Part shown: positions 29,704 to 41,237 of the stretch, in pieces
How the letters are laid out: every line of letters starts with the position of its first letter
Numbering within the stretch: position 1 is the stretch's first letter
IMG/VR virus record: IMGVR_UViG_3300032222_000151
Span: 32,001-96,000 of that record
Direction: 5' to 3' (one strand)
DNA from: a virus
DNA length: 64,000 bases
Notes under the pieces: model-generated
What the model was told of the DNA's origin: nothing
Database searches by the model: none
Seen by the model: the letters and a program-made list of their open reading frames with translations, nothing else
Program-made: the position numbers and the translations under genes

Positions 29704-30341
29704 TATACTTCTTCCAAGGTAACTGAGACATTCCAGTAATCAAACTTGGTGCCTCTCTTTTCAACAGAGTATGAAAACTCTGATATAAACATCTCTACTA
29801 GTTGATTGTATTGTGAAAGGTGGTCGTACGGTGCTTCTGTGCCCTTAAAAATACCCTTCCTGTCATATGCAAGGAATACCCAGAAAGAACCTTTGTGACC
29901 GTCGTACCATTCAAGCATGTCTGCTCCGCCTGCGCCTCCATCAGTTGTGTAGGCTTTGTATGGGGAAAGTCCAGTCTCCTGATTAAAACTAGGGATGTTT
30001 GCATGTGACCTTGATGGAATCATATCCCAACTAGTACTGATCTTCATCTTGTCTGCAATATGATAAGATCTCATACGACCATTTATCATTCTCTCCCGCT
30101 TTTCAATACGCTCATCTGAAAACTCAAGAGGAGATCTATTGTCGTCTGTAAGCATTAAGAATTGCTCTATTAGCGCTGGATCTGTTATATCTACAGGATC
30201 TGCGCCTACCTCAAGACCGTAAGGTATATATAAACCATTAATCAGGGTGCCAGAGTTTTCAGACCAAAGCATTCCGCTTGGTCTATGATATTTCTTACGA
30301 CTTTGCATGTATGTATACCTTGGATCAACTTCATCTGCCAT
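29703..30341 (-). CDS. Distal tail protein-like
   Basis: Directly after the tape measure; ERMINGRMRSY...WNVSVTLEEV. Confidence 0.65.
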   Translation of the reverse strand: MADEVDPRYTYMQSRKKYHRPSGMLWSENSGTLINGLYIPYGLEVGADPVDITDPALIEQFLMLTDDNRSPLEFSDERIEKRERMINGRMRSYHIADKMKISTSWDMIPSRSHANIPSFNQETGLSPYKAYTTDGGAGGADMLEWYDGHKGSFWVFLAYDRKGIFKGTEAPYDHLSQYNQLVEMFISEFSYSVEKRGTKFDYWNVSVTLEEV

Positions 30342-33300
30342 TTATGTTTACCCCCCTAATTCTTCTATCATCTACCTGCTTGATTGTTGACATTACTGCC
30401 TGTGCAATTTCATTTGGATTAGCATTTGTCTTGGCATTAACAGTTAATGTATATGTATTATTATACACTGAACCGCCAATGGAATCGCCCTTATTAATCT
30501 TTCTCATGGTGTCTACTCCATAAGAGTCTACTGCGTACTTGCTCATTATGAATTCTCCAGGAGTTAACATTGCTGGAACTGTATCAGTCCCCTTGGCAAA
30601 ACCACCGAATGAGAAGTACTTAGGAATTAGTCCTCCAGTTGACCAGTTTCCAAATGCATTTGCTGCTGCTGCATTACCGCCAAACTTCTTTAATATTTCT
30701 TCTTGCTTTCTCTTTGCATCCTTTGCTGCTGCTGCTGCACGAGCAGAATCTGCTGAAGCATTTTCTTTTGCTTTTTTGGCTGCTGCTGCATCTCTTGCTG
30801 CTGCATCTCTTACTGCTTTTTCTTGTGCAAGCATTCCAGGAGTTGGCTTCATAGCATTTTGTATTGCTGCAGCATTTTGTTGATCATACAAACTCTTCAA
30901 GTGAAGTCCTGGAGTTGTTCCAGCATTTTTCATTACGTCTGCAACATTCATATTTTGTTCAAATAGCATTAAGTTCTTTTTTGCATCCAGTGCCATTCTG
31001 TCTAGATCTTCTCTATGCAAAAGTGAACTGTTGTAGAATGGATCAGATGTGTTATTGTTCTTTGCTGGAGTTGTACCACTATTATTTTTTGAGCCCCCAG
31101 TAGATCCATCTGGTGTGCTTCCAGCATTTCCTCTAAACTCTGGATTAGTTCCTGTAGAACCATTACTGCCTGGGTTTATTTTAGGATCATCATCTCCGCC
31201 TGTATCGGTTCCTGTAGCAGTTCCTGTACCAGTTACAGTAGGAGTTCCTGTAGTAGTTCCTGTAGGGTTTATTGGATCAGTATTAACCTTTTGATTTTCA
31301 TATGCTGTTATTAGTTTTGGATATATATCTAATGCATCCTGCATTGCTTTAACAAACTGAGCGCTCTTAATTCTTGCAAGATCTACAAGGTTTTTAATTC
31401 CTTCCCATTCTGCTCTTGTCTTTCCAAGAACAGTTATGCCATCAATCTCTTTCTTTAACTGAATCTCTCTTAGTCTTATTAATTCTTGTGCTGGCTCTAA
31501 CTTTTTTTCTTCTATGTCAAAGATCTCATCTTGAAGTTTTTTAATTTCTGCTTCAAGTTGCTTTCTTGTTTTTCCATCTTTTGTCTTAACTCCTGAGAGT
31601 TCAAACTCTCTTGACTTCTCTAAAGCGTCCTTTTGCTTTGTGGCAGCATCTGCAGCCTCTTTAGCCCTCATGTCTTGAGCAGCCCTTGCTGCTGCTGCGA
31701 TATCTCCAGAGGTCAGGGCTTCCGCTAGTGTTAACTGACCCTTTTGCTGTTCAGAAATTGCTGCATTTGCTTTTTCTACCTGATCTAGGGCAGCAATTCT
31801 TTCATCATATTTTTCATTAATCTTCTTTTCTTGCTCTTCTATCTGCTTTAGGCCTGCCTCTTTGTCATCTATGTCAAACTGTTTTTTTGCAATTTCATTT
31901 TGAGCGGCTTCAATGTCTTTGTTTGCCTGTTTTGTATCAATATCAAACTTTAGTTGGTATTTTTTTTCTTCAACATCAAAAGCCTCTGTTGCCTTATTGA
32001 ATCCGTCTTGGAATATTTCTTCCATTCCAGGAATAGTCATCTTCTTAATTTTTAGTTCTACATTGGCCTTATCCAAAGTTAACTGTAGCAACTTCTTAAA
32101 TCTTTCACTGTCTATTCCAAACTCAAGCATAACTGCTTGAAGTGCTGGACTATCTAAAATTGCTGCTATTGTGTCACTAGACAATCCAGAAAGATCTTTT
32201 GTCATCTTTGCTAAAATCTTTGCTCTATTTTCTAAGTCAGTAGTTTCACCAGTAGCCAACTGTATTGCAGCCATTTCTCTCTGAGCCTTAGTTGCTTTCT
32301 TCGCTGCTGCAGTTATCTTCTTTAATTCTGCATCTGTTAGTCTCTTATTAGCAACTGCTGCAGCAAAAGTAGCATCTGCTACTGCTTCTAGGGCTACAGA
32401 CCCATCAACTCCAGCAGCCTGAAGTCTCTTTAGTGCTGTAACCTGGTCACCAATTTGTCTTGACATTTTTTCTTGTTCGCTTACAAACTCTCCAAGTTTG
32501 ACTGACTGAAGGGCATCTCCAATGCTTCTAGCATTATCTTTTATCTTTGTTATGTTGCCCTTTTTGTCAAACTCAAACAGAGATTTCTTTCTCTTTTCGT
32601 ATTCTTTTGGATCCATACCAGTAATAAGATCAATTAGGTCTTCTCCTGCTCCTAATGATCTCATATCATTTTCTATACCGCTAAATATTTTAATAGTCTT
32701 GCTTCCACCAAACAAGTTGTTCAGTGCCTTTTGTGATGCTCCCCAGCCTTCTGTAACCTTGATCTGGTTCTTTCTTACATCTCTTAAACGCTTAACTAAA
32801 TCGTCTAGTTCTGACGACTGAACCTTATTGCCACCACCACTACTGCTGCTACTTGATGTTGGTGCGTTTGCAGTAATTTGTGTGTTATTAGTTACAGCCT
32901 TAAATCCTTGTGCTTCCTTGTACTTTTGGATTTTAAATGCAACGCTTCCCTTAACTCCAGCACCACCTCGTGGTCCAGTCTCTTTCAACCAAGCCTGGTA
33001 GTCGTCATCTGCTACGATCTGTGGATCTGGAATATTTATAACTGAAGCAATTGTAGTTGTGTAGACCTGCTTTTGATCATCTGTTAATGATTTAAAGTAT
33101 GTCTCATCAAAGGCTGCGCTACCTCTTAGTTCTGGAATGATATTGTATACAGCATCTATAGTCTTTGGTTTTTGAGTTTCAATTGCATCTAGAACTCTAT
33201 TTAATTCATCGTATGCAGCCTTGTTTTTAGGATCAATGTAAAAGCCTACAAGGAAGTCAGAAGGAATTACTGAATTAAGATTATTTAGTTTAATTATATT

Positions 33301-36300
33301 CTTTGTAAAGTCAAGAGCGTCTGAGTCTTTTTCAAATGCCTGAACCTTAGTAATGAAGTCTGTCTGTACTGTCTTGTTTATAACCTTGTCTGCTCCAAGA
33401 ATATTTTGTGCTGCCACACCAATTGATTCAGATGTCGCACCACTAAACTTGGTAATTATGTTCATCATCTTTGGAGCAATATCTTTATTCTCTGTTGCCA
33501 TTTGCAAAAGACTTCTAAATACTGACGGAGGTATATCTCCACTTGCCATCTTTGCTTGAATTAAAAATTCCTGTCCGCTATCAATTAGTCCAGACTTTCT
33601 CAGGTTTCCTGCCTGAGTATTAACAACATCTAGGTAGGCCAACTCATTAGGATTATTTTTGTATTTTGCACTAGTTGCCTTCTGCATTCCACTCATCATG
33701 GACTCTTGAAGACCTCCTGCGCTATTGTATTGAGAAACAATGTCTGCCTGTATAGCACCTTGTGCAGCAGTCAACTGATTTCTTTTATCAATTAACTTTT
33801 CTTGTAGTTCGTTTGCTTCATTAATTTTGCCCTGAAGTCTTAACTCTTCAACCTTCTTTTCCATATACATATCAAAAGAATCAAGCATTTGCTTGTTTTG
33901 CTCCATTGCAATCTTGGCATCAACGGCATATGCAGCACCTAGTTCTGCAGACTGATTTGCAAACTTCTTTGAAGCAAAGTATCCACCGATTGCTCCTGCT
34001 GCTGCACCAATTCCTCCACCAATGATTGCTCCTACGGCATTTCCCAAAACTGGTACAACAGATCCTAGGGCTGCACCAATTGTTGCTCCGACTGCTGCGC
34101 CGCCTGCTGCTGATGCTCCAATACCAACCTTTTGCATAGTTTTTTGTCCAGCAAGTTTTTGTAGAGGGTTTGCATTTTCAATATTTGAAAAACTTGTCTG
34201 AAGGTTCTTTTTGTTTTGCTCAACCATCTTTACTCTAACTTCAAGAGGGCTGTTGACCAAGTTCTCTCCATTTGGACCTAGCAACTCTTCTATCTGTGCA
34301 ATAACCTTGATGCCCAAAGACATATCTCCTGCTTGTCTTGCAGCATTCATTGCTAAACTCTTTGCTTGACCAATATCCATTGCACCAGACATTACTGCTG
34401 TTGATAGTTGGTCTGTTAGATCTGATACCGCTTGACCACCCTTTCCTGCAGCATTTTGCTTTGAAAGTCTTTCTGTTAAAGCCTTTCCTTCTTTTGTCTG
34501 AACAAATGCTTCTCCGTATGTTGTCTTTCCTGTTGCTGGTCCTAGCATTGAGAAAGAGTTCTTTCTTCTTAAGTCCATTTGTTCTGAGGCTGTTGCTTTA
34601 CCACTAAACTTTGCTATTTCTTGAATTGCAGAAGCAGAACCCTTAAACTTTTCGCTTTCCTCTAAAACCTTCCTTTGTGCATTATCAAATGCCATTCTTA
34701 GGGCAACGAATGCACCAACTGTTGCTGTCAGTCCAATTGCAACTGCTGCCATTGGGCTCTTTAGCATTGGCAAAACCATTGCAAGACCCATCAAAGGCAT
34801 CATAACCTTTTGAGAAATTTCTCCAACCTTGCCTGGAGCCATTGATCCAATCATTGCAGCACCTGATGCGATACCAACTGCACCAGCCATGCCCATACCT
34901 GGGCTCTTTCCTGCTGCTATTTTTGCTTGTTTCTTTGCTTCTCTATTTTCAAAGTATGTTTTTGTTCTTCCAGAAAGAGTTCTCTTCTTTGCTTCTTCTG
35001 CTGCCTTTTGATCAATAATTGATTGTTTGTATGCTACCTTTTCTGCTAACTTACTTCTCTTCATTTCTTTTTGAGCATTGCGTCTCATAGACTTTGCATC
35101 TGCATCTATTGGTCCCGTGCCGTAAAGCGCTGTTCTTGAGGCTGCTGCCTTTGCCTGTGTTTTTGCTTCAGCCTTTTGACGCTTCTCTAATTGACGACGT
35201 ACAGACTTTGCATCTGCATCAACTGGACCAGTTCCATAGAGCATGGTTCTTGAGGCTGCTGCTGCAGACTGAGATATAGTTGTTCCAATATTTGCACCGA
35301 CTGCTCTTGCTTCTGCAAGTGAACCCTTTGCGCCATTTACTAGTGCTGTTGCAACTGCACCTTGTGATTCTGGTGCATCAGCAAAACCAGCAACGGTTAC
35401 TGATCCCTTTGGACCCTGTACGACCCTAGTGCCCTTCTTCGGCTTTGCAGTTATTCTAGTATCTTTTGAACTTCCAGAAGATGACTTAACGCCTTTAGGC
35501 TTTGGCTTTGTCTTTGGCTTCTTTAGGTTGCCCTTCTCATCTTCAATCATTTCATCTGGCTTTACCAAAATAGATGAATGCTTTGCATGGATGGCTCTCC
35601 AGTCAACCTTCTTTCCTTCTTCAAGTCGATCTATCATTGCCTGATAAACCTTTTGGTCTTCTGGTCCAAGACCGAAACTCTTTATAGTTTCTTTTAGTCT
35701 TGGTAGAACTCTATCAATTTCATTAATCATTGATCTGTGGTATTCATCTGCTGTCATCTTCTTTGCAATGTCTGCAGTTGCATTACCAAACCAGAAAGGA
35801 GAGTTTCCTGCTGCTGGGCCCTTTACTCCACTTAAATTCTTTTCTGCCATTTCAAGCATTGAAGGTAACTTTGCTGCGTAATCTCTTGCTCCAGATGCTC
35901 TGTCAAATACTCCAGCAGTTCCCACATCTGCAAGAATGTTTCCTCCAAGATTACCCTTCTTTAGATCTTTATCTGCACGAAGATTTGCTGCAACAAGTTG
36001 TCTAAAGTATTGATCTTTATTAAACTTCTTATCCATTTGGTTTGGATCAAACTTTGAGTCAAATGCAGACTCAAGAGCATACATTAACTTTCCAGTGTAA
36101 GGATCTTTGATGATTCTTAGTTCTTGCTTTGGTGCATCTAGACCGTGTACATCTCTTGCAATCTGTGTTGCTCTTTGTTCTGCAATTGCTGACTTCAAGT
36201 CAACCATTGGCTTTACATAAACCTTCTTACCATCTGCCGTTTCAAATACACCAGAGGCATCACGAGCAGCAACATTGCTGTATCCAGTTCCCTTTGAAAT

Positions 36301-39300
36301 TTGCTTTCCATAGGTTGTTACTGGCTTTCCATCTATGTCTTCTCCTGTAAGGCCCTGAAGAACTCCTCTTGCTGCTTTTAGTAGTGCAGGCTTTGATGTG
36401 TTTCCAATTTTAACTGCGCCTGTGTCTCCACCAGATCTTCCAGTAGCAAATCTATCTCCAACAAGGGATCCATTATTCTTTTTGTCTGTAAGAGTCCAGT
36501 CTTTTGGATCTTTAGAATTTTTCTTTCCGCTAACTTCTGGTCTTTCGTATCCAATAAGTTTTCCATCTTTGTCAGTTAAAACATCAAGCATTATTCCTGG
36601 TGCTTTTAACTTTAAATCTTCAATTGCAGAGATTGTTGCTCTATTGGTTTTAGGTCCGTCTTTCTTTATTTTTTCAATAAGATCTTCTACAGACATCTTG
36701 CCGTTATACTTAACACTTGCCTTTGATCCACCGCCAACACCTGCTACTGCGTAGATGCTCTCAATTGCTGGAGCAAGTCTAGGGTCTCTTGCAAGTCCGC
36801 CAAGAATTCCTGTCTTAAGGTTACCCATTCTAGAGTAGATGGTTTTATCTCCAATTAAGGTTCCATCTGGCAAACCCTGTAGTGAAAGAATAAGGTTCTT
36901 GCGAATCCTGTTAGTAACCTTTGCTGCTTCTTCAGCAGTCAAACTGCTTGGTGGCTTCATTAAGTTTGCAGTCATTGTTTCTACTGCACGAGGCTTTCTT
37001 AGTTCTGCTTCGTATTCTCTTACTTCTACACGATTGTCTCTAAGTCTTGCATGTACATCACTTGCAATGTCAAACCCAAGACCACGGTATCCAAATGCTT
37101 TATCAATGCCTCTTGCACCAAGATCCTTAGCCTTTCCTTCAAACTCTGGCGGAACCTGTCCTACACCCATCACTTGTGGGCTTGTTGCATGTGCAAAATC
37201 TGTTTCTACTTTTCTTCTTTTACCCTTTTTAGTTACTCCAGTTGTTCCTTCACTAAATCCTTGAATGGTTTCTCCTGCAACCATTCTGGCAATTACTGGT
37301 CTGTTTGCTGGATCCTGTGCAGCCTGTGCTGGGATTACTGCTTCTCCAGGAGTAAGCATTGTTGGAACTGTATCTTTATTACCTGTTCCTGGAACACTTG
37401 TTGTACCGTTTGAGTATTTCTTTAATCCCTTTCCACCTGCACCACCACGGACTGGGCCTGTAAATCCAACTTGTGCAGCAATTGCTCTTCTGTATGCTGC
37501 AGCCAAAGCATTAACCGCTGTTGTCTCAGAGGTAAATGTTTGCTTAAGTCTTGTATGTACTTGATCTAGAGATGCTGCAACGGCAGATGCTTCTAACTGC
37601 TCTTTAGTTAAATAAGAAGTCTGCTCTCCTAATACCTTACTTGCTGATCCTGCTCGATTGTACATCGACTTCATGTTTGCAAATAGTTTGATTATGTTTG
37701 CAGCAGCGTTAGCAATTAAACCAAATGTCATCAGAAGAATCGGACCAATTCCTCCAACTGCAACAGTAAATATAGTTAAAAACTTTTTACTTCCATCGCC
37801 CAAGTTATTAAACTTTTCCAAAACCTTTGATGCAAACTCAACGATAGGTGTTAGGGCCTTTAGGAACTGCTCTCCAACTGGAGCAATAGTAACCTTTAAA
37901 TCTTCGATTGCTTTCTTAAACTTGTATGTTGTTGTGTCTTCGATCTTATCTAATTCTCGTTGTGACAGGATTGCCAGTTCTTCTGTGGTTGCCTGTGCAA
38001 GTCCAAGGACTCTGGAAGCCTGTGTTCCTTGTGCTGTAACGTTCTGGAACAATGTAGAAAGTCTTGAGAACTGGAACTTACCAAACAATTGTTCAATTGC
38101 ACGAGCACGGTTTAGAGGATCAAGTGTATCTAGTGCCTGTGCGAACCCTACTACAGTCTTTGTTACATCTCCTTGATTTGCTTCTACAATACCCTTGATG
38201 TTTACGCCAAGACCTGCTAAAAACTTTGATGCCTTTTCGGATGGATTAATTAATGATGCAAGACCAGACTTAAGTGCGTTAGCACCTTCTGATGCATTAA
38301 TTCCACCTTCCTTCATTGCTGTTAGGAAGAATGCTAAATCTTCTACATCTCCACCTAGTTGCTGAACAACTGGTCCAGCCTTTGGAATTGCAATCGTTAA
38401 GTCTTCAATAGATACAACAGTTTGGTTTTCAACAGAGTTAAGGAAGTCAATCTTCTTTGCTAGATCTTCTGCTGCTATACCAAAAGCATTTGTAATTGAG
38501 ATTGTGGTTTCTAGAGCCTGTGCTTGCTCAACTCCACCAAGAACAGCAAGTCTGGTTGCTTGTGCAACCTGTGCAGTTAGTTCTGCACCTTGCTTACCCA
38601 TTGCTGCAGCATCTGCAGCCATCTTCATTGTCTCTTCTACTGCAACGCCGTACTTGGTATATTCTTTTGCAAGGGTTTGAATCTGCTTAACCATTGCATC
38701 TGTTTCTTCTTGCGTTGTAAACATTTCACCGTAAACACGCTTAAACCTAATTGCCTGCTCTTCAAGTTTCATAAATGTCTTGGCAGCAGTTGTTCCAAGC
38801 ATTGCCAGTGGAACTGTAAAACCAACCATCAACTGACGACCAGCCCACTGAGTGTTCTTACCAAAGTTAAGTAGGTTTGTTGAGCCTTGCTTTAATAATT
38901 GATTAAGTAGTTGCTGTCTTTGTGCAGCAATTGCTGTTTGTGTTCCAAGATTTTTCATGTCAAGTGTAAGAGGTCTTACAGCAATTGACTCTAGGGCTCC
39001 GTTAGCGCCTCTGCCCAACTTAATGTATTGGGTCTGGATATCCTTAACACGCTCTCGTGCAACCTTGTTGATTGTTTCAAATTCAGATCTAAAAAGTCTT
39101 CCGAATGTCTTTGTTGCAGCACCTGTATATCTAAAGTACTCTCTAGAGGTTAACTTGTTTCTCTCTAGGGCATCTGTAAAGTGCTCTGTACTTGATGTAA
39201 CTTTTCTAAGTGATGCTTGAAATTGTCCTGTAGCATTTATGCTGTTCATCAAGTTTTGTGCTTGATTTGCTGCTACCGCTGATGCTGACGCACCAGACTT

Positions 39301-39408
39301 TGCCATTTGTGTATGGAAGGCTGATATCTGACGTTGTAGAAGTTTTAGACTTGCTAAAGCATCGGACGTATCAATATTTACATGAATATTGGATTGAACA
39401 TCAGCCAT
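30331..39408 (-). CDS. Tape measure protein with internal cargo domains
   Basis: 3025 aa; TP901-like core (GINASEGANALKS, IEQLFGK), hydrophobic segments, coiled coils, DTVPAMLTPGE motif; follows the tail tube and chaperones. Confidence 0.93.
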   Translation of the reverse strand: MADVQSNIHVNIDTSDALASLKLLQRQISAFHTQMAKSGASASAVAANQAQNLMNSINATGQFQASLRKVTSSTEHFTDALERNKLTSREYFRYTGAATKTFGRLFRSEFETINKVARERVKDIQTQYIKLGRGANGALESIAVRPLTLDMKNLGTQTAIAAQRQQLLNQLLKQGSTNLLNFGKNTQWAGRQLMVGFTVPLAMLGTTAAKTFMKLEEQAIRFKRVYGEMFTTQEETDAMVKQIQTLAKEYTKYGVAVEETMKMAADAAAMGKQGAELTAQVAQATRLAVLGGVEQAQALETTISITNAFGIAAEDLAKKIDFLNSVENQTVVSIEDLTIAIPKAGPVVQQLGGDVEDLAFFLTAMKEGGINASEGANALKSGLASLINPSEKASKFLAGLGVNIKGIVEANQGDVTKTVVGFAQALDTLDPLNRARAIEQLFGKFQFSRLSTLFQNVTAQGTQASRVLGLAQATTEELAILSQRELDKIEDTTTYKFKKAIEDLKVTIAPVGEQFLKALTPIVEFASKVLEKFNNLGDGSKKFLTIFTVAVGGIGPILLMTFGLIANAAANIIKLFANMKSMYNRAGSASKVLGEQTSYLTKEQLEASAVAASLDQVHTRLKQTFTSETTAVNALAAAYRRAIAAQVGFTGPVRGGAGGKGLKKYSNGTTSVPGTGNKDTVPTMLTPGEAVIPAQAAQDPANRPVIARMVAGETIQGFSEGTTGVTKKGKRRKVETDFAHATSPQVMGVGQVPPEFEGKAKDLGARGIDKAFGYRGLGFDIASDVHARLRDNRVEVREYEAELRKPRAVETMTANLMKPPSSLTAEEAAKVTNRIRKNLILSLQGLPDGTLIGDKTIYSRMGNLKTGILGGLARDPRLAPAIESIYAVAGVGGGSKASVKYNGKMSVEDLIEKIKKDGPKTNRATISAIEDLKLKAPGIMLDVLTDKDGKLIGYERPEVSGKKNSKDPKDWTLTDKKNNGSLVGDRFATGRSGGDTGAVKIGNTSKPALLKAARGVLQGLTGEDIDGKPVTTYGKQISKGTGYSNVAARDASGVFETADGKKVYVKPMVDLKSAIAEQRATQIARDVHGLDAPKQELRIIKDPYTGKLMYALESAFDSKFDPNQMDKKFNKDQYFRQLVAANLRADKDLKKGNLGGNILADVGTAGVFDRASGARDYAAKLPSMLEMAEKNLSGVKGPAAGNSPFWFGNATADIAKKMTADEYHRSMINEIDRVLPRLKETIKSFGLGPEDQKVYQAMIDRLEEGKKVDWRAIHAKHSSILVKPDEMIEDEKGNLKKPKTKPKPKGVKSSSGSSKDTRITAKPKKGTRVVQGPKGSVTVAGFADAPESQGAVATALVNGAKGSLAEARAVGANIGTTISQSAAAASRTMLYGTGPVDADAKSVRRQLEKRQKAEAKTQAKAAASRTALYGTGPIDADAKSMRRNAQKEMKRSKLAEKVAYKQSIIDQKAAEEAKKRTLSGRTKTYFENREAKKQAKIAAGKSPGMGMAGAVGIASGAAMIGSMAPGKVGEISQKVMMPLMGLAMVLPMLKSPMAAVAIGLTATVGAFVALRMAFDNAQRKVLEESEKFKGSASAIQEIAKFSGKATASEQMDLRRKNSFSMLGPATGKTTYGEAFVQTKEGKALTERLSKQNAAGKGGQAVSDLTDQLSTAVMSGAMDIGQAKSLAMNAARQAGDMSLGIKVIAQIEELLGPNGENLVNSPLEVRVKMVEQNKKNLQTSFSNIENANPLQKLAGQKTMQKVGIGASAAGGAAVGATIGAALGSVVPVLGNAVGAIIGGGIGAAAGAIGGYFASKKFANQSAELGAAYAVDAKIAMEQNKQMLDSFDMYMEKKVEELRLQGKINEANELQEKLIDKRNQLTAAQGAIQADIVSQYNSAGGLQESMMSGMQKATSAKYKNNPNELAYLDVVNTQAGNLRKSGLIDSGQEFLIQAKMASGDIPPSVFRSLLQMATENKDIAPKMMNIITKFSGATSESIGVAAQNILGADKVINKTVQTDFITKVQAFEKDSDALDFTKNIIKLNNLNSVIPSDFLVGFYIDPKNKAAYDELNRVLDAIETQKPKTIDAVYNIIPELRGSAAFDETYFKSLTDDQKQVYTTTIASVINIPDPQIVADDDYQAWLKETGPRGGAGVKGSVAFKIQKYKEAQGFKAVTNNTQITANAPTSSSSSSGGGNKVQSSELDDLVKRLRDVRKNQIKVTEGWGASQKALNNLFGGSKTIKIFSGIENDMRSLGAGEDLIDLITGMDPKEYEKRKKSLFEFDKKGNITKIKDNARSIGDALQSVKLGEFVSEQEKMSRQIGDQVTALKRLQAAGVDGSVALEAVADATFAAAVANKRLTDAELKKITAAAKKATKAQREMAAIQLATGETTDLENRAKILAKMTKDLSGLSSDTIAAILDSPALQAVMLEFGIDSERFKKLLQLTLDKANVELKIKKMTIPGMEEIFQDGFNKATEAFDVEEKKYQLKFDIDTKQANKDIEAAQNEIAKKQFDIDDKEAGLKQIEEQEKKINEKYDERIAALDQVEKANAAISEQQKGQLTLAEALTSGDIAAAARAAQDMRAKEAADAATKQKDALEKSREFELSGVKTKDGKTRKQLEAEIKKLQDEIFDIEEKKLEPAQELIRLREIQLKKEIDGITVLGKTRAEWEGIKNLVDLARIKSAQFVKAMQDALDIYPKLITAYENQKVNTDPINPTGTTTGTPTVTGTGTATGTDTGGDDDPKINPGSNGSTGTNPEFRGNAGSTPDGSTGGSKNNSGTTPAKNNNTSDPFYNSSLLHREDLDRMALDAKKNLMLFEQNMNVADVMKNAGTTPGLHLKSLYDQQNAAAIQNAMKPTPGMLAQEKAVRDAAARDAAAAKKAKENASADSARAAAAAKDAKRKQEEILKKFGGNAAAANAFGNWSTGGLIPKYFSFGGFAKGTDTVPAMLTPGEFIMSKYAVDSYGVDTMRKINKGDSIGGSVYNNTYTLTVNAKTNANPNEIAQAVMSTIKQVDDRRIRGVNINGR
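35081..35262 (-). repeat. Imperfect direct repeat within the tape measure (two copies of AAASRTxLYGTGPxDADAKSxRR)
   Basis: Copies at about 35081-35148 and 35195-35262. Confidence 0.85.
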
Positions 39409-39426
39409 CCATTAACACCTCTTTAT

Positions 39427-39750
39427 TTAGTTATTTACAAGATTGCCAATTAAAGATGCGTCTGAAAGTTTGATTCCAGATGCTTCTTCAACGATCTTGT
39501 ATACAGTTGGAAGGTCTAGATTTTCTTCTAGGGCTTCCTTGTCATCTGCCAATTCTGGCTTGTATTGTTGCATTGCAATTTGAACACAGTCAATAAGTAG
39601 ATCCATTGACTTTTCGTTATCTTCTGCTACCTTTGCGATATCTTCAAACTTCTTCATAAATGGACGAAGTAGAGATATCTTTAGTGGTCTTACCTTGATC
39701 TTTGTTCCGTCGATCAGAGTTACTGTTTTTTCTTCAGTGGCGGTTGCCAT
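39427..39750 (-). CDS. Tail assembly chaperone (gpG-like)
   Basis: Directly before the tape measure; AAGGAGG RBS; paralogous to the N-half of 39807-40487. Confidence 0.75.
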   Translation of the reverse strand: MATATEEKTVTLIDGTKIKVRPLKISLLRPFMKKFEDIAKVAEDNEKSMDLLIDCVQIAMQQYKPELADDKEALEENLDLPTVYKIVEEASGIKLSDASLIGNLVNN

Positions 39751-39776
39751 TTATTCCTCCTTATAAGGTTTAGTCA

Positions 39777-39785
39777 ATTATACCA
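39777..39785 (-). promoter_or_regulatory. Extended -10 promoter TGgTATAAT
   Basis: Consensus match upstream of a strong RBS. Confidence 0.65.
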
Positions 39786-39806
39786 TAGCGCAGGCTTATT
39801 TTTTTA

Positions 39807-40487
39807 TTATTCATAAACTTCGTAATCAAGCCCCATGCCTATTCCAAAACCAGCCTTTTCAGCATTTACACCCTGTAAGGCTAGAATATCATTACCATCT
39901 GTGGTTTTACCCTTGCTAAAAACTCTAGCCTTCATGTCTTCCCACTCGTTGCCACTGCCTGAGTTTTTATCCAGATCTACACCTTGCATAGCAGCGGAGA
40001 ACTTCTTATCGCTATAATCCAATTCTCTTTTTATCTTTAAAGTTGCTGTTAGTTCTTGCATAGACATTGACGACTCCAGTTCATCATAGTCTTTCCATAT
40101 TCCAAGAAGGAATGCTTCTGACTCTAGTTTTGCCAAGTCCAATGTTTCCCATGATGAACCGCTATCTACCGCCTGATCTTTAACAGTATCATCTGACTTT
40201 TGATTAATTTTAATTCCTGCTGCGATATCTATAACCTCATAAATTGTTGGCAAGTCCAGACTGTCTTCAACATCTTCTGTAGTTTTAATTGATGGGCAGT
40301 ACTGCTTCATTGCGATTCTGGCACAGTCAACAAGAACAGCAATAGACTCATCATCTGTTTTTGCATTTTTAATACTTTCAAATACTTCTAGGAATTCTCT
40401 TAAATATTTTATTTTTAATGGTACAGCAGTAACGACTTGACCGTCTACTAAATAAAAATCTTTTTTGTCATAAATTCTTGTTGCCAT
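39807..40487 (-). CDS. Tail assembly chaperone (gpGT-like, two-domain)
   Basis: Between tail tube and tape measure; G-like N-half plus an extra C-terminal domain; start refined to ATG 40487. Confidence 0.7.
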   Translation of the reverse strand: MATRIYDKKDFYLVDGQVVTAVPLKIKYLREFLEVFESIKNAKTDDESIAVLVDCARIAMKQYCPSIKTTEDVEDSLDLPTIYEVIDIAAGIKINQKSDDTVKDQAVDSGSSWETLDLAKLESEAFLLGIWKDYDELESSMSMQELTATLKIKRELDYSDKKFSAAMQGVDLDKNSGSGNEWEDMKARVFSKGKTTDGNDILALQGVNAEKAGFGIGMGLDYEVYE

Positions 40488-40493
40488 AATATA

Positions 40494-40502
40494 AGTATAC
40501 CA
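40494..40502 (-). promoter_or_regulatory. Extended -10 TGgTATACT, leaderless geometry
   Basis: 6 nt to ATG 40487; no SD. Confidence 0.65.
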
Positions 40503-40537
40503 AACAGAAAGGCCCAACCCCGAAGGATTGAGCCTCT
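40503..40537 (-). terminator. Rho-independent terminator after the tail tube gene
   Basis: AGGCTCAATCC-TTCG-GGGTTGGGCCT followed by TTCTGTTT; cUUCGg loop. Confidence 0.8.
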
Positions 40538-40553
40538 CGTATATTAAGTTGTA

Positions 40554-41237
40554 TTATGGTGTTACTGATGTCAATGAGCGGTCTACGATCTTACCGTATG
40601 ATGCGTCATCGTTTGGAAGAAGACGGAATGAAACTTCAAACATTGAAGCCTCGTCACGCTTAGCAGATACTGTAACATTCTCAATTGAGAGTGCACGGTA
40701 TGCAACATAAATTCTTTCCTTTGGTGTTAGCGCAGAACCAGATCCTGGTCCTACTGCTACAAGGCCACGCTCTAGTGGAACGTCGCCAATATCGCCAGCA
40801 GACATCTTAAGAGTTGTTGCTCCTGATGCTGTTGACTTGTCTGAGTCATCTCCTGCAATTGCTACTAGAAGATTTTCTAGTGTTGCCTCTGCAAAAGCAG
40901 TATTTAGATTAACTGTCATACCTTGCTTGAATAAACGAGCAACGTCAAGAAGTTGATCTACTGCTACTTCACCAAAATCTGGCTGAAAAGCAAGTTCCAA
41001 ACCATTAGATGTGTATCCAATGTTTGTGTAATCTTCTGTCCAGTCTGGTGTCAGAGTATCGTCTGACAACGTTTCCTTTATAGAAGTTGTTGACTGTGCG
41101 AATGAAGGTAGATCTAATGCTGCTTGAGCATCGGTAATCTTTCCATCTTCATCAAGTCCGATTGGGCCTGCATTATGTGTGAAAAGTGCTGCTGCACCCA
41201 CGATAATGTTACTACTTGAACCACGGCTATATGCCAT
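40554..41237 (-). CDS. Major tail tube protein
   Basis: NIIVGAA, GYTSNGLE, VDQLLD, AEATLENL; GAGGTG RBS at ATG 41237; followed by a terminator. Confidence 0.85.
   Translation of the reverse strand: MAYSRGSSSNIIVGAAALFTHNAGPIGLDEDGKITDAQAALDLPSFAQSTTSIKETLSDDTLTPDWTEDYTNIGYTSNGLELAFQPDFGEVAVDQLLDVARLFKQGMTVNLNTAFAEATLENLLVAIAGDDSDKSTASGATTLKMSAGDIGDVPLERGLVAVGPGSGSALTPKERIYVAYRALSIENVTVSAKRDEASMFEVSFRLLPNDDASYGKIVDRSLTSVTP

Follow-up and report, generated by a model that had tools for sequence, protein, structure and literature searches.

Some phage tape measure proteins (TMPs) bear domains that degrade the cell wall and, in one case that has been studied, an RNA polymerase; here we describe a further case of virion- and TMP-borne enzymes, a cassette with a predicted kinase fold. 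The carrier is a TMP gene in a stretch of 64,000 nucleotides (hereafter the window), which spans bases 32001-96000 of the 118,809-bp IMG/VR virus record IMGVR_UViG_3300032222_000151, a record with direct terminal repeats. The element in question is a predicted protein-kinase-like domain in the variable middle of the 3025-residue product of this gene. Closest to it among known cases are the RNA polymerase fused to the TMP of the Thermus phage P23-45 and the kinases of the MuF polyvalent proteins.

In P23-45, gp96 unites a TMP with a virion RNA polymerase. This polymerase transcribes the pre-early genes, and the authors of the study hypothesise that it is positioned at the TMP pore while the DNA enters (PMC10770324). 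The likeness lies in a giant TMP bearing an enzyme that must act in the cytoplasm; the two differ in that the polymerase of gp96 is N-terminal, whereas the kinase fold is part of an internal and optional cassette, and is known from sequence and a structural model. Polyvalent proteins of phages and plasmids are alike in concept, being multidomain virion-associated proteins that inject enzymes, and effector kinases are among those reported (Iyer et al. 2017, PMC5512222). The kinase group described there is without the whole C-terminal subdomain and comes from phages of the Verrucomicrobia-Chlamydia group and of Bacteroidetes. The predicted structure of the TMP domain, in contrast, keeps its C-terminal helices (165-259), which sets it apart from the clade so described. 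The carriers also differ, the present one being a TMP, and the term 'tape measure' occurs 0 times in that article. A TMP-embedded kinase was not found in the literature searched, subscription journals and supplements being outside the search.

The carrier protein and its kinase-like domain

We identify the 3025-residue product as a TMP, as the initial annotation of the window had proposed, because Pfam, PHROGs and synteny agree. Pfam recovered PF10145 at aa 246-443 (E 2.3e-25), and TMP families supply eight of the nine PHROG matches of the open reading frame (ORF), the best with E 6.2e-101. The order of ORFs around the gene agrees with that of the Streptomyces phage Yaboi, which runs from portal, protease and capsid, through further genes, to two tail chaperones, a 2093-aa TMP and minor tail proteins. 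The Yaboi TMP, which has no kinase domain, resembles the present protein in its N-terminal part (about 30% identical), aligning with aa 50-698 at 31% identity (E 1e-70). The core domain, the place between chaperones and minor tail proteins, and the great length are together those of a TMP.

The initial annotation had further pointed to kinase-like motifs at about aa 1030-1270, a segment that by arithmetic maps to 35599-36321 of the window. Six motifs are indeed found there in an intact ORF, each once and in the order given by that annotation, namely GTGYS (aa 1040-1044), KVYVKP (1062-1067), AIAEQRA (1074-1080), HGLDAP (1088-1093), KDLKKGN (1147-1153) and ILADVG (1158-1163). A phmmer search with aa 980-1320 as the query against 1.84 billion cluster representatives recovered 167 proteins at E<=1e-3, of which 134 reach E<=1e-30, with a common block at aa ~1027-1285. 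We aligned the query with 128 full-domain matches out of the 150 listed, leaving out 22 partial ones. In these 129 sequences G1042, K1066, E1077, N1153 and D1161 are 100% conserved, D1148 and L1149 are conserved at 99%, G1163 at 98% and D1146 at 95%, and identities in the domain alignment fall to 25%. Conservation of the putative catalytic K, E, D, N and D, on which the initial annotation had staked its proposal, is accordingly 99-100%. Comparison with five relatives gave ratios of nonsynonymous to synonymous substitution rates (dN/dS) of 0.06-0.21 for the domain, which is under purifying selection. Thus, the residues typical of a protein-kinase-like active site are all represented: a Gly-rich loop, a candidate beta3 lysine, a helix-C glutamate, an aspartate with an asparagine at +5, and a metal-binding aspartate in a DxG motif.

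For structure prediction with AlphaFold2 (AF2) a 52-row alignment was used, comprising the sequence from the window, 16 loci and 35 hand-picked representatives. The resulting model of the domain has a mean predicted local distance difference test score (pLDDT) of 89.5 and a predicted template modelling score (pTM) of 0.89. Its elements are, in order, strands, a helix (52-67), further strands, a second helix (112-124), short strands and C-terminal helices; D1161-x-G comes after two short strands and is followed by a helical C-lobe. Placed on these secondary-structure elements, the conserved residues are where a kinase would have them, K1066 being in a strand (43-49), E1077 in the helix after it (52-67) and the D-x-D-L-x-x-x-N loop behind helix 112-124. 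Both this model and structural searches with VIA point to a two-lobed protein-kinase-like fold. A wide VIA-align search of 48,161 PDB representatives returned kinase folds in all 50 of the matches listed. CotH (5jda) comes first with Z 12.1, 216 aligned residues and a root-mean-square deviation (rmsd) of 4.1, followed by CtkA (9.7), PI4KIIalpha (9.7), HipA (9.5) and MavQ (9.5), and lower down by PI3Ks, Fam20C, actin-fragmin kinase, HipT, RIO and Bud32. VIA rescoring of the Foldseek candidates likewise gave kinase folds in all 50 matches listed, with CotH at 12.2, CtkA at 10.9, PI4KIIbeta at 10.1, MavQ at 10.0 and LepB at 9.6. The Foldseek list for the PDB is headed by CtkA (E 5.1e-4) and contains kinases throughout except for CylM at rank 48. 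The adjoining module of the same protein, folded likewise, served as an internal control and had no VIA match at Z>=5. On the strength of the model, the domain is a self-contained protein-kinase-like fold with a full set of phosphotransfer residues. In BFVD the best structural matches, with E about 1e-5, are to large proteins of phages that bear portal, MuF, ADP-ribosyltransferase (ART) or PI3/4-kinase-domain annotations, which suggests a distant link to the polyvalent-protein kinases.

The best structural match is, therefore, CotH of the Bacillus spore coat (PDB 5jd9/5jda; PF08757), with Z 12.1-12.2 over 216-218 residues and rmsd 4.1-4.2. CotH and the TMP domain are alike in that each is an atypical kinase fold belonging to a large protein assembly; however, they are only 11-12% identical, no CotH hidden Markov model (HMM) matches the domain, and CotH works on coat proteins as a separate protein, whereas the TMP domain is internal to a phage tail protein. 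CtkA of H. pylori, the type II PI4-kinases, MavQ and LepB of Legionella, and HipA/HipT follow with Z 9-10.9 over about 180-217 residues. These proteins share with the TMP domain the same succession of Gly loop, Lys, Glu, D..N loop and DxG, but none has an HMM-level tie to it, and none is part of a virion protein. The kinase-like fold foreseen in the initial annotation is thus borne out by AF2, Foldseek and VIA. Its suggestion of a HipA/PI3-4K/atypical kinase fold holds for the atypical kinase fold, but HipA and PI3-4K are not the best matches, CotH being nearest, and no kinase HMM recognizes the domain.

Searches at the sequence level returned no kinase family. Pfam found none on the whole TMP, and Pfam-A on the domain at E<=10 gave three chance-level non-kinase families only, with HipA_C absent. 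Among 27 members of the family, 36 Pfam families were matched, with no kinase among the 25 listed and the other 11 being weaker and confined to one member each; NCBIfam on 11 members likewise gave no kinase (best E 0.063). At E<=10 neither PF00454 (PI3/PI4-kinase) nor PF20613 (HipA_2) matched in the phage genome, and PF08757 (CotH) had no match in its six-frame translation, while control genomes did match. Sequence and profile searches of the PDB yielded no kinase, the rows being chance matches such as designed helical proteins and an S-layer repeat; the domain had no tblastn match in 50,697 phage records; and PHROGs gave one match to a function-unknown family (E 0.035) and no kinase. In the ESM Atlas the domain falls with unnamed clusters, the nearest named ones being HipA_2, LepB_N and PI3_PI4_kinase at 0.92, which we take as leads only. 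Because Pfam, NCBIfam and PDB sequence models all miss the domain, we consider it to define a new and well-conserved sequence family with a confidently predicted kinase fold.

The variable cassette and its distribution

A search for long proteins, limited to 1663-5294 aa, found the domain in 342 protein clusters. Among the 120 of these that were listed, PF10145 is present in 116, with LysM also in 7 and PF01467 also in 5, and the sources name the listed carriers TP901-family TMPs. To assess the distribution among close relatives we took, from at least 588 viral contigs, the 80 best, in which the N-terminal core of the TMP is 76-95% identical. Twelve were too short to score for the domain; of the other 68, 33 have it and 35 do not, the latter in spite of at least 5 kb of sequence downstream. 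The kinase-less TMPs are complete ORFs, mostly of 2385-2760 aa. The kinase module is hence optional.

The borders of the variable region emerged from BLASTP comparisons with kinase-less TMPs, in which similarity ends at aa 695-748 (aa 882 in one case, L097) and restarts at aa 1417-1436; aa 1-715 of one kinase-less relative are 80% identical to the N-terminal unit. The cassette so delimited is placed between this unit and the C-terminal two thirds of the protein, which we call membrane-active. Across 150 kinase-bearing representatives, the N-terminal unit (aa 1-699) is common to 117 and the C-terminal third to 93, while the 327 aa before the kinase are kept in only 4 and the 250 aa after it in 11. 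Judged by these alignments, the kinase domain is the constant part of an otherwise variable TMP middle, and the module was probably exchanged by recombination.

A short stretch encoding the motif MLTPGE might be involved in this exchange. Its two copies in the gene are 91% identical over 33 nt and lie 6.8 kb apart, with no further copy in the TMP, and the cassette starts ~30 residues past the first. In 117 long representatives MLTPGE was located within 120 aa of the kinase on the upstream side in 44, on the downstream side in 27 and on both sides in 20. Because the first copy sits just upstream of the variable cassette, modules may be swapped by recombination at this stretch, and the cassette would mark a hot spot of recombination within a structural gene.

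Some relatives bear further enzymatic modules in the same region. A cytidylyltransferase-like module (PF01467) precedes the kinase at aa ~728-859 in a subset of them, being present in 7 of the 150 representatives and in 10 of 112 listed homologues, and a HAD-phosphatase-like module occurs in 5 of the 150. As some carriers have a PF01467 or HAD-like module, the cargo is multi-enzymatic in part of the family. PF01467 or HAD-like (DxDxT) modules were observed in the variable region of P0195, P0258 and P0265 (aa ~728-859) and of P0036, P0038 and P0150. A Pfam search of three kinase-less TMPs found no cargo domain.

The nearest cultured relatives of the phage are Streptomyces siphophages of 120-135 kb (Stanwilliamsviridae, e.g. 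Yaboi), whose major capsid protein is 40-42% identical, and Streptomyces phages account for 127 of the 226 records matching the major capsid protein. One copy of the domain, 78% identical, was found in a metagenome-assembled genome (MAG) labelled Acidimicrobiaceae, as the sole match in a scan of genome contigs. Because of the Streptomyces-phage relatives and this MAG copy, the host is probably an actinobacterium.

Function of the domain: proposal and alternatives

We posit, with about an even chance of being right as a whole, that the domain is an active TMP-borne kinase that leaves the tail and acts on the host at entry. Under this proposal, an ATP-dependent kinase would be carried by the TMP within the tail, leave with it at infection and, at the cytoplasmic side of the entry pore, act on a protein of the host or a lipid of the membrane, ahead of any phage gene expression. 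The initial annotation had likewise suggested a ready-made kinase, brought in with injection, that might act on host proteins of defence or translation or on membrane lipids. Its placement at the pore is proposed by analogy with the TMP-fused RNA polymerase of P23-45. The domain would not be structurally necessary but would give an accessory advantage, for instance in takeover or counter-defence. Such a kinase, if active, would extend the range of enzymes that a siphophage places in or at its host before phage gene expression. The occurrence of the domain in 342 protein clusters and in 33 of the 80 closest contigs suggests a trait that is ecologically common in an uncultured phage group. A more far-reaching and rather doubtful version would have the TMP of this abundant uncultured group, which probably infects actinobacteria, as a modular effector-delivery platform, in which kinase, nucleotidyltransferase (NTase), HAD and unknown-fold cassettes are swapped at the MLTPGE-encoding motif, and the kinase is threaded through the tail so that at time zero, at the entry pore, it phosphorylates an inositol lipid of the membrane or a host protein of defence or translation. 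On that version it would be the first kinase known to be injected by a phage tail.

Several observations weigh against an injected kinase. The domain is absent from the 35 assessable close relatives mentioned above and from the cultured relative Yaboi, whose genome returned nothing in a search with the family profile. None of the kinase family HMMs of Pfam, NCBIfam or the single-family searches matches it, and the Foldseek statistics are modest, with 2 PDB matches at E<=1e-3 and a TM of 0.40 for the best, CtkA. Further, ATP is present in the cytoplasm only, and a folded domain of ~29 kDa would have to be housed within the tail. The best structural neighbour, CotH, phosphorylates structural proteins at assembly (PMC7821199). 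Finally, the paired cytidylyltransferase-like and HAD-like modules in relatives suggest small-molecule chemistry.

The kinase might instead act at assembly in the producer cell, on the TMP itself or on tail proteins, for instance on the Ser-rich linker that follows the domain, and in a CotH-like manner tune TMP solubility, chaperone release or metastability. We regard this as unlikely, though it fares best among the alternatives. It draws on CotH being the top structural match (Z 12.1-12.2) and on the plentiful ATP at the site of TMP synthesis. CotH itself autophosphorylates, and the Ser/Lys/Arg-rich repeats that it polyphosphorylates are those of CotB and CotG (PMC7821199). In the close sub-clade a conserved K/S-rich linker comes directly after the domain, with the pattern KPK...VKSSSG..KDTR kept in close relatives, and it could conceivably be a substrate or pseudosubstrate. 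However, the linker is not general: in 144 homologues the 60 aa after the domain have 11% S+T as against 13% in the whole proteins, and other sub-clades carry different tails at this point. Moreover, if assembly depended on the kinase, half of the near-identical TMP backbones should not lack it, and the CotH HMM does not match.

A role as a small-molecule or lipid kinase, forming one step of a cargo pathway directed at envelope or nucleotide metabolites, appears improbable to us and ranks next. Here a lipid head group, sugar or alcohol, for example, would be phosphorylated and then processed by the NTase or phosphatase module. Consistent with this are the PF01467 and HAD-like modules counted above and the structural scores of lipid kinases, which come near those of protein kinases (PI4KII 9.7-10.1, MavQ 9.5-10.0, LepB 9.6, Vps34 about 9), besides the ESM Atlas lead to LepB_N and PI3_PI4_kinase. 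Actinobacterial membranes contain phosphatidylinositol, and the host is probably of this group. Against it, Pfam finds neither an NTase nor a HAD module in the TMP studied here, such modules are rare in the family and variable in position relative to the kinase, and PF00454 does not match. In addition, the DLKxxN catalytic loop is the protein Ser/Thr-kinase form.

Kinase folds can catalyse other transfers, and absence of the module from 35 of 68 assessable relatives might also suit another chemistry (e.g. AMPylation) or a non-catalytic binding or structural module, but we judge this very unlikely, as K, E, D, N and D are 99-100% conserved down to 25% identity under purifying selection, and a full conserved catalytic set so maintained is not the pattern expected of a pseudokinase.

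Coordinates and other features of the locus

Table 1. Features of the TMP gene, in window coordinates.
Feature	Position	Strand	Basis or remark
TMP gene, 3025 aa	30331..39408	-	Intact ORF (ORF list, translation)
Conserved N-terminal TMP unit, aa 1-718	37255..39408	-	Ends with first MLTPGE; hydrophobic stretch aa 541-577
First DTVP(T/A)MLTPGE copy, MLTPGE aa 684-689	37342..37374	-	Upstream of cassette
Variable cargo cassette, aa 719-1416	35161..37254	-	BLASTP against kinase-less TMPs
Upstream cassette module, aa 719-1026	36331..37254	-	18-sequence alignment; AF2 model
Predicted protein-kinase-like domain, aa 1027-1285	35554..36330	-	Conserved block (phmmer, alignment); AF2; VIA
K1066, proposed beta3 ATP-binding lysine	36211..36213	-	100% conserved; in model strand 43-49
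E1077, proposed helix-C glutamate	36178..36180	-	100% conserved; in model helix 52-67
Putative catalytic-loop motif D1146-K-D1148-L-K-K-G-N1153	35950..35973	-	Conserved; after model helix 112-124
D1161-V-G1163, proposed metal-binding DFG-like motif	35920..35928	-	D1161 100%, G1163 98% conserved
Basic Ser-rich linker, aa 1286-1340, with KSSSGSSKDTR	35389..35553	-	25% K+R, 18% S+T over 60 aa
60-nt direct repeat, two copies, ...LYGTGP.DADAKS peptide	35089-35148, 35203-35262	-	83% identical; near cassette 3' end
Region with hydrophobic stretches aa 1539-1574 and 1767-1809, glycine-zipper-like	33982..34794	-	Hydropathy; downstream of cassette
C-terminal DTVPAMLTPGE copy, MLTPGE aa 2947-2952	30553..30585	-	Motif and repeat search

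The part of the cassette that precedes the kinase is a module in its own right, with H740, D780, D854, S859, R860, R956 and E958 invariant in 18 sequences and an AF2 model of pLDDT 84.2 and pTM 0.72. It has no fold match, the best Foldseek E being 0.17 and the best VIA Z 4.3. An assignment as an H-Y-E type ADP-ribosyltransferase was considered and found no support, as the fold searches matched nothing. Three kinase-less TMPs (L120, L126 and L131) have the module too, 29-31% identical.

Downstream of the cassette, the glycine-zipper-like region includes a match to the Pfam family Gly-zipper_Omp (aa 1769-1814), which with E 1.5e-4 falls short of the curated cut-off. Upstream of the TMP gene, two ORFs (39427-39750 and 39807-40517) occupy the place where Yaboi has its frameshifted tail chaperone pair. 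Plus-strand ORFs overlap the TMP gene, and it is the minus-strand frame that is under purifying selection. An Rfam scan of 30000-40600 gave no match. Near the C-terminal part of the TMP, a 12-nt periodic repeat at 31187-31281 encodes Thr/Gly-rich low-complexity TGT repeats.

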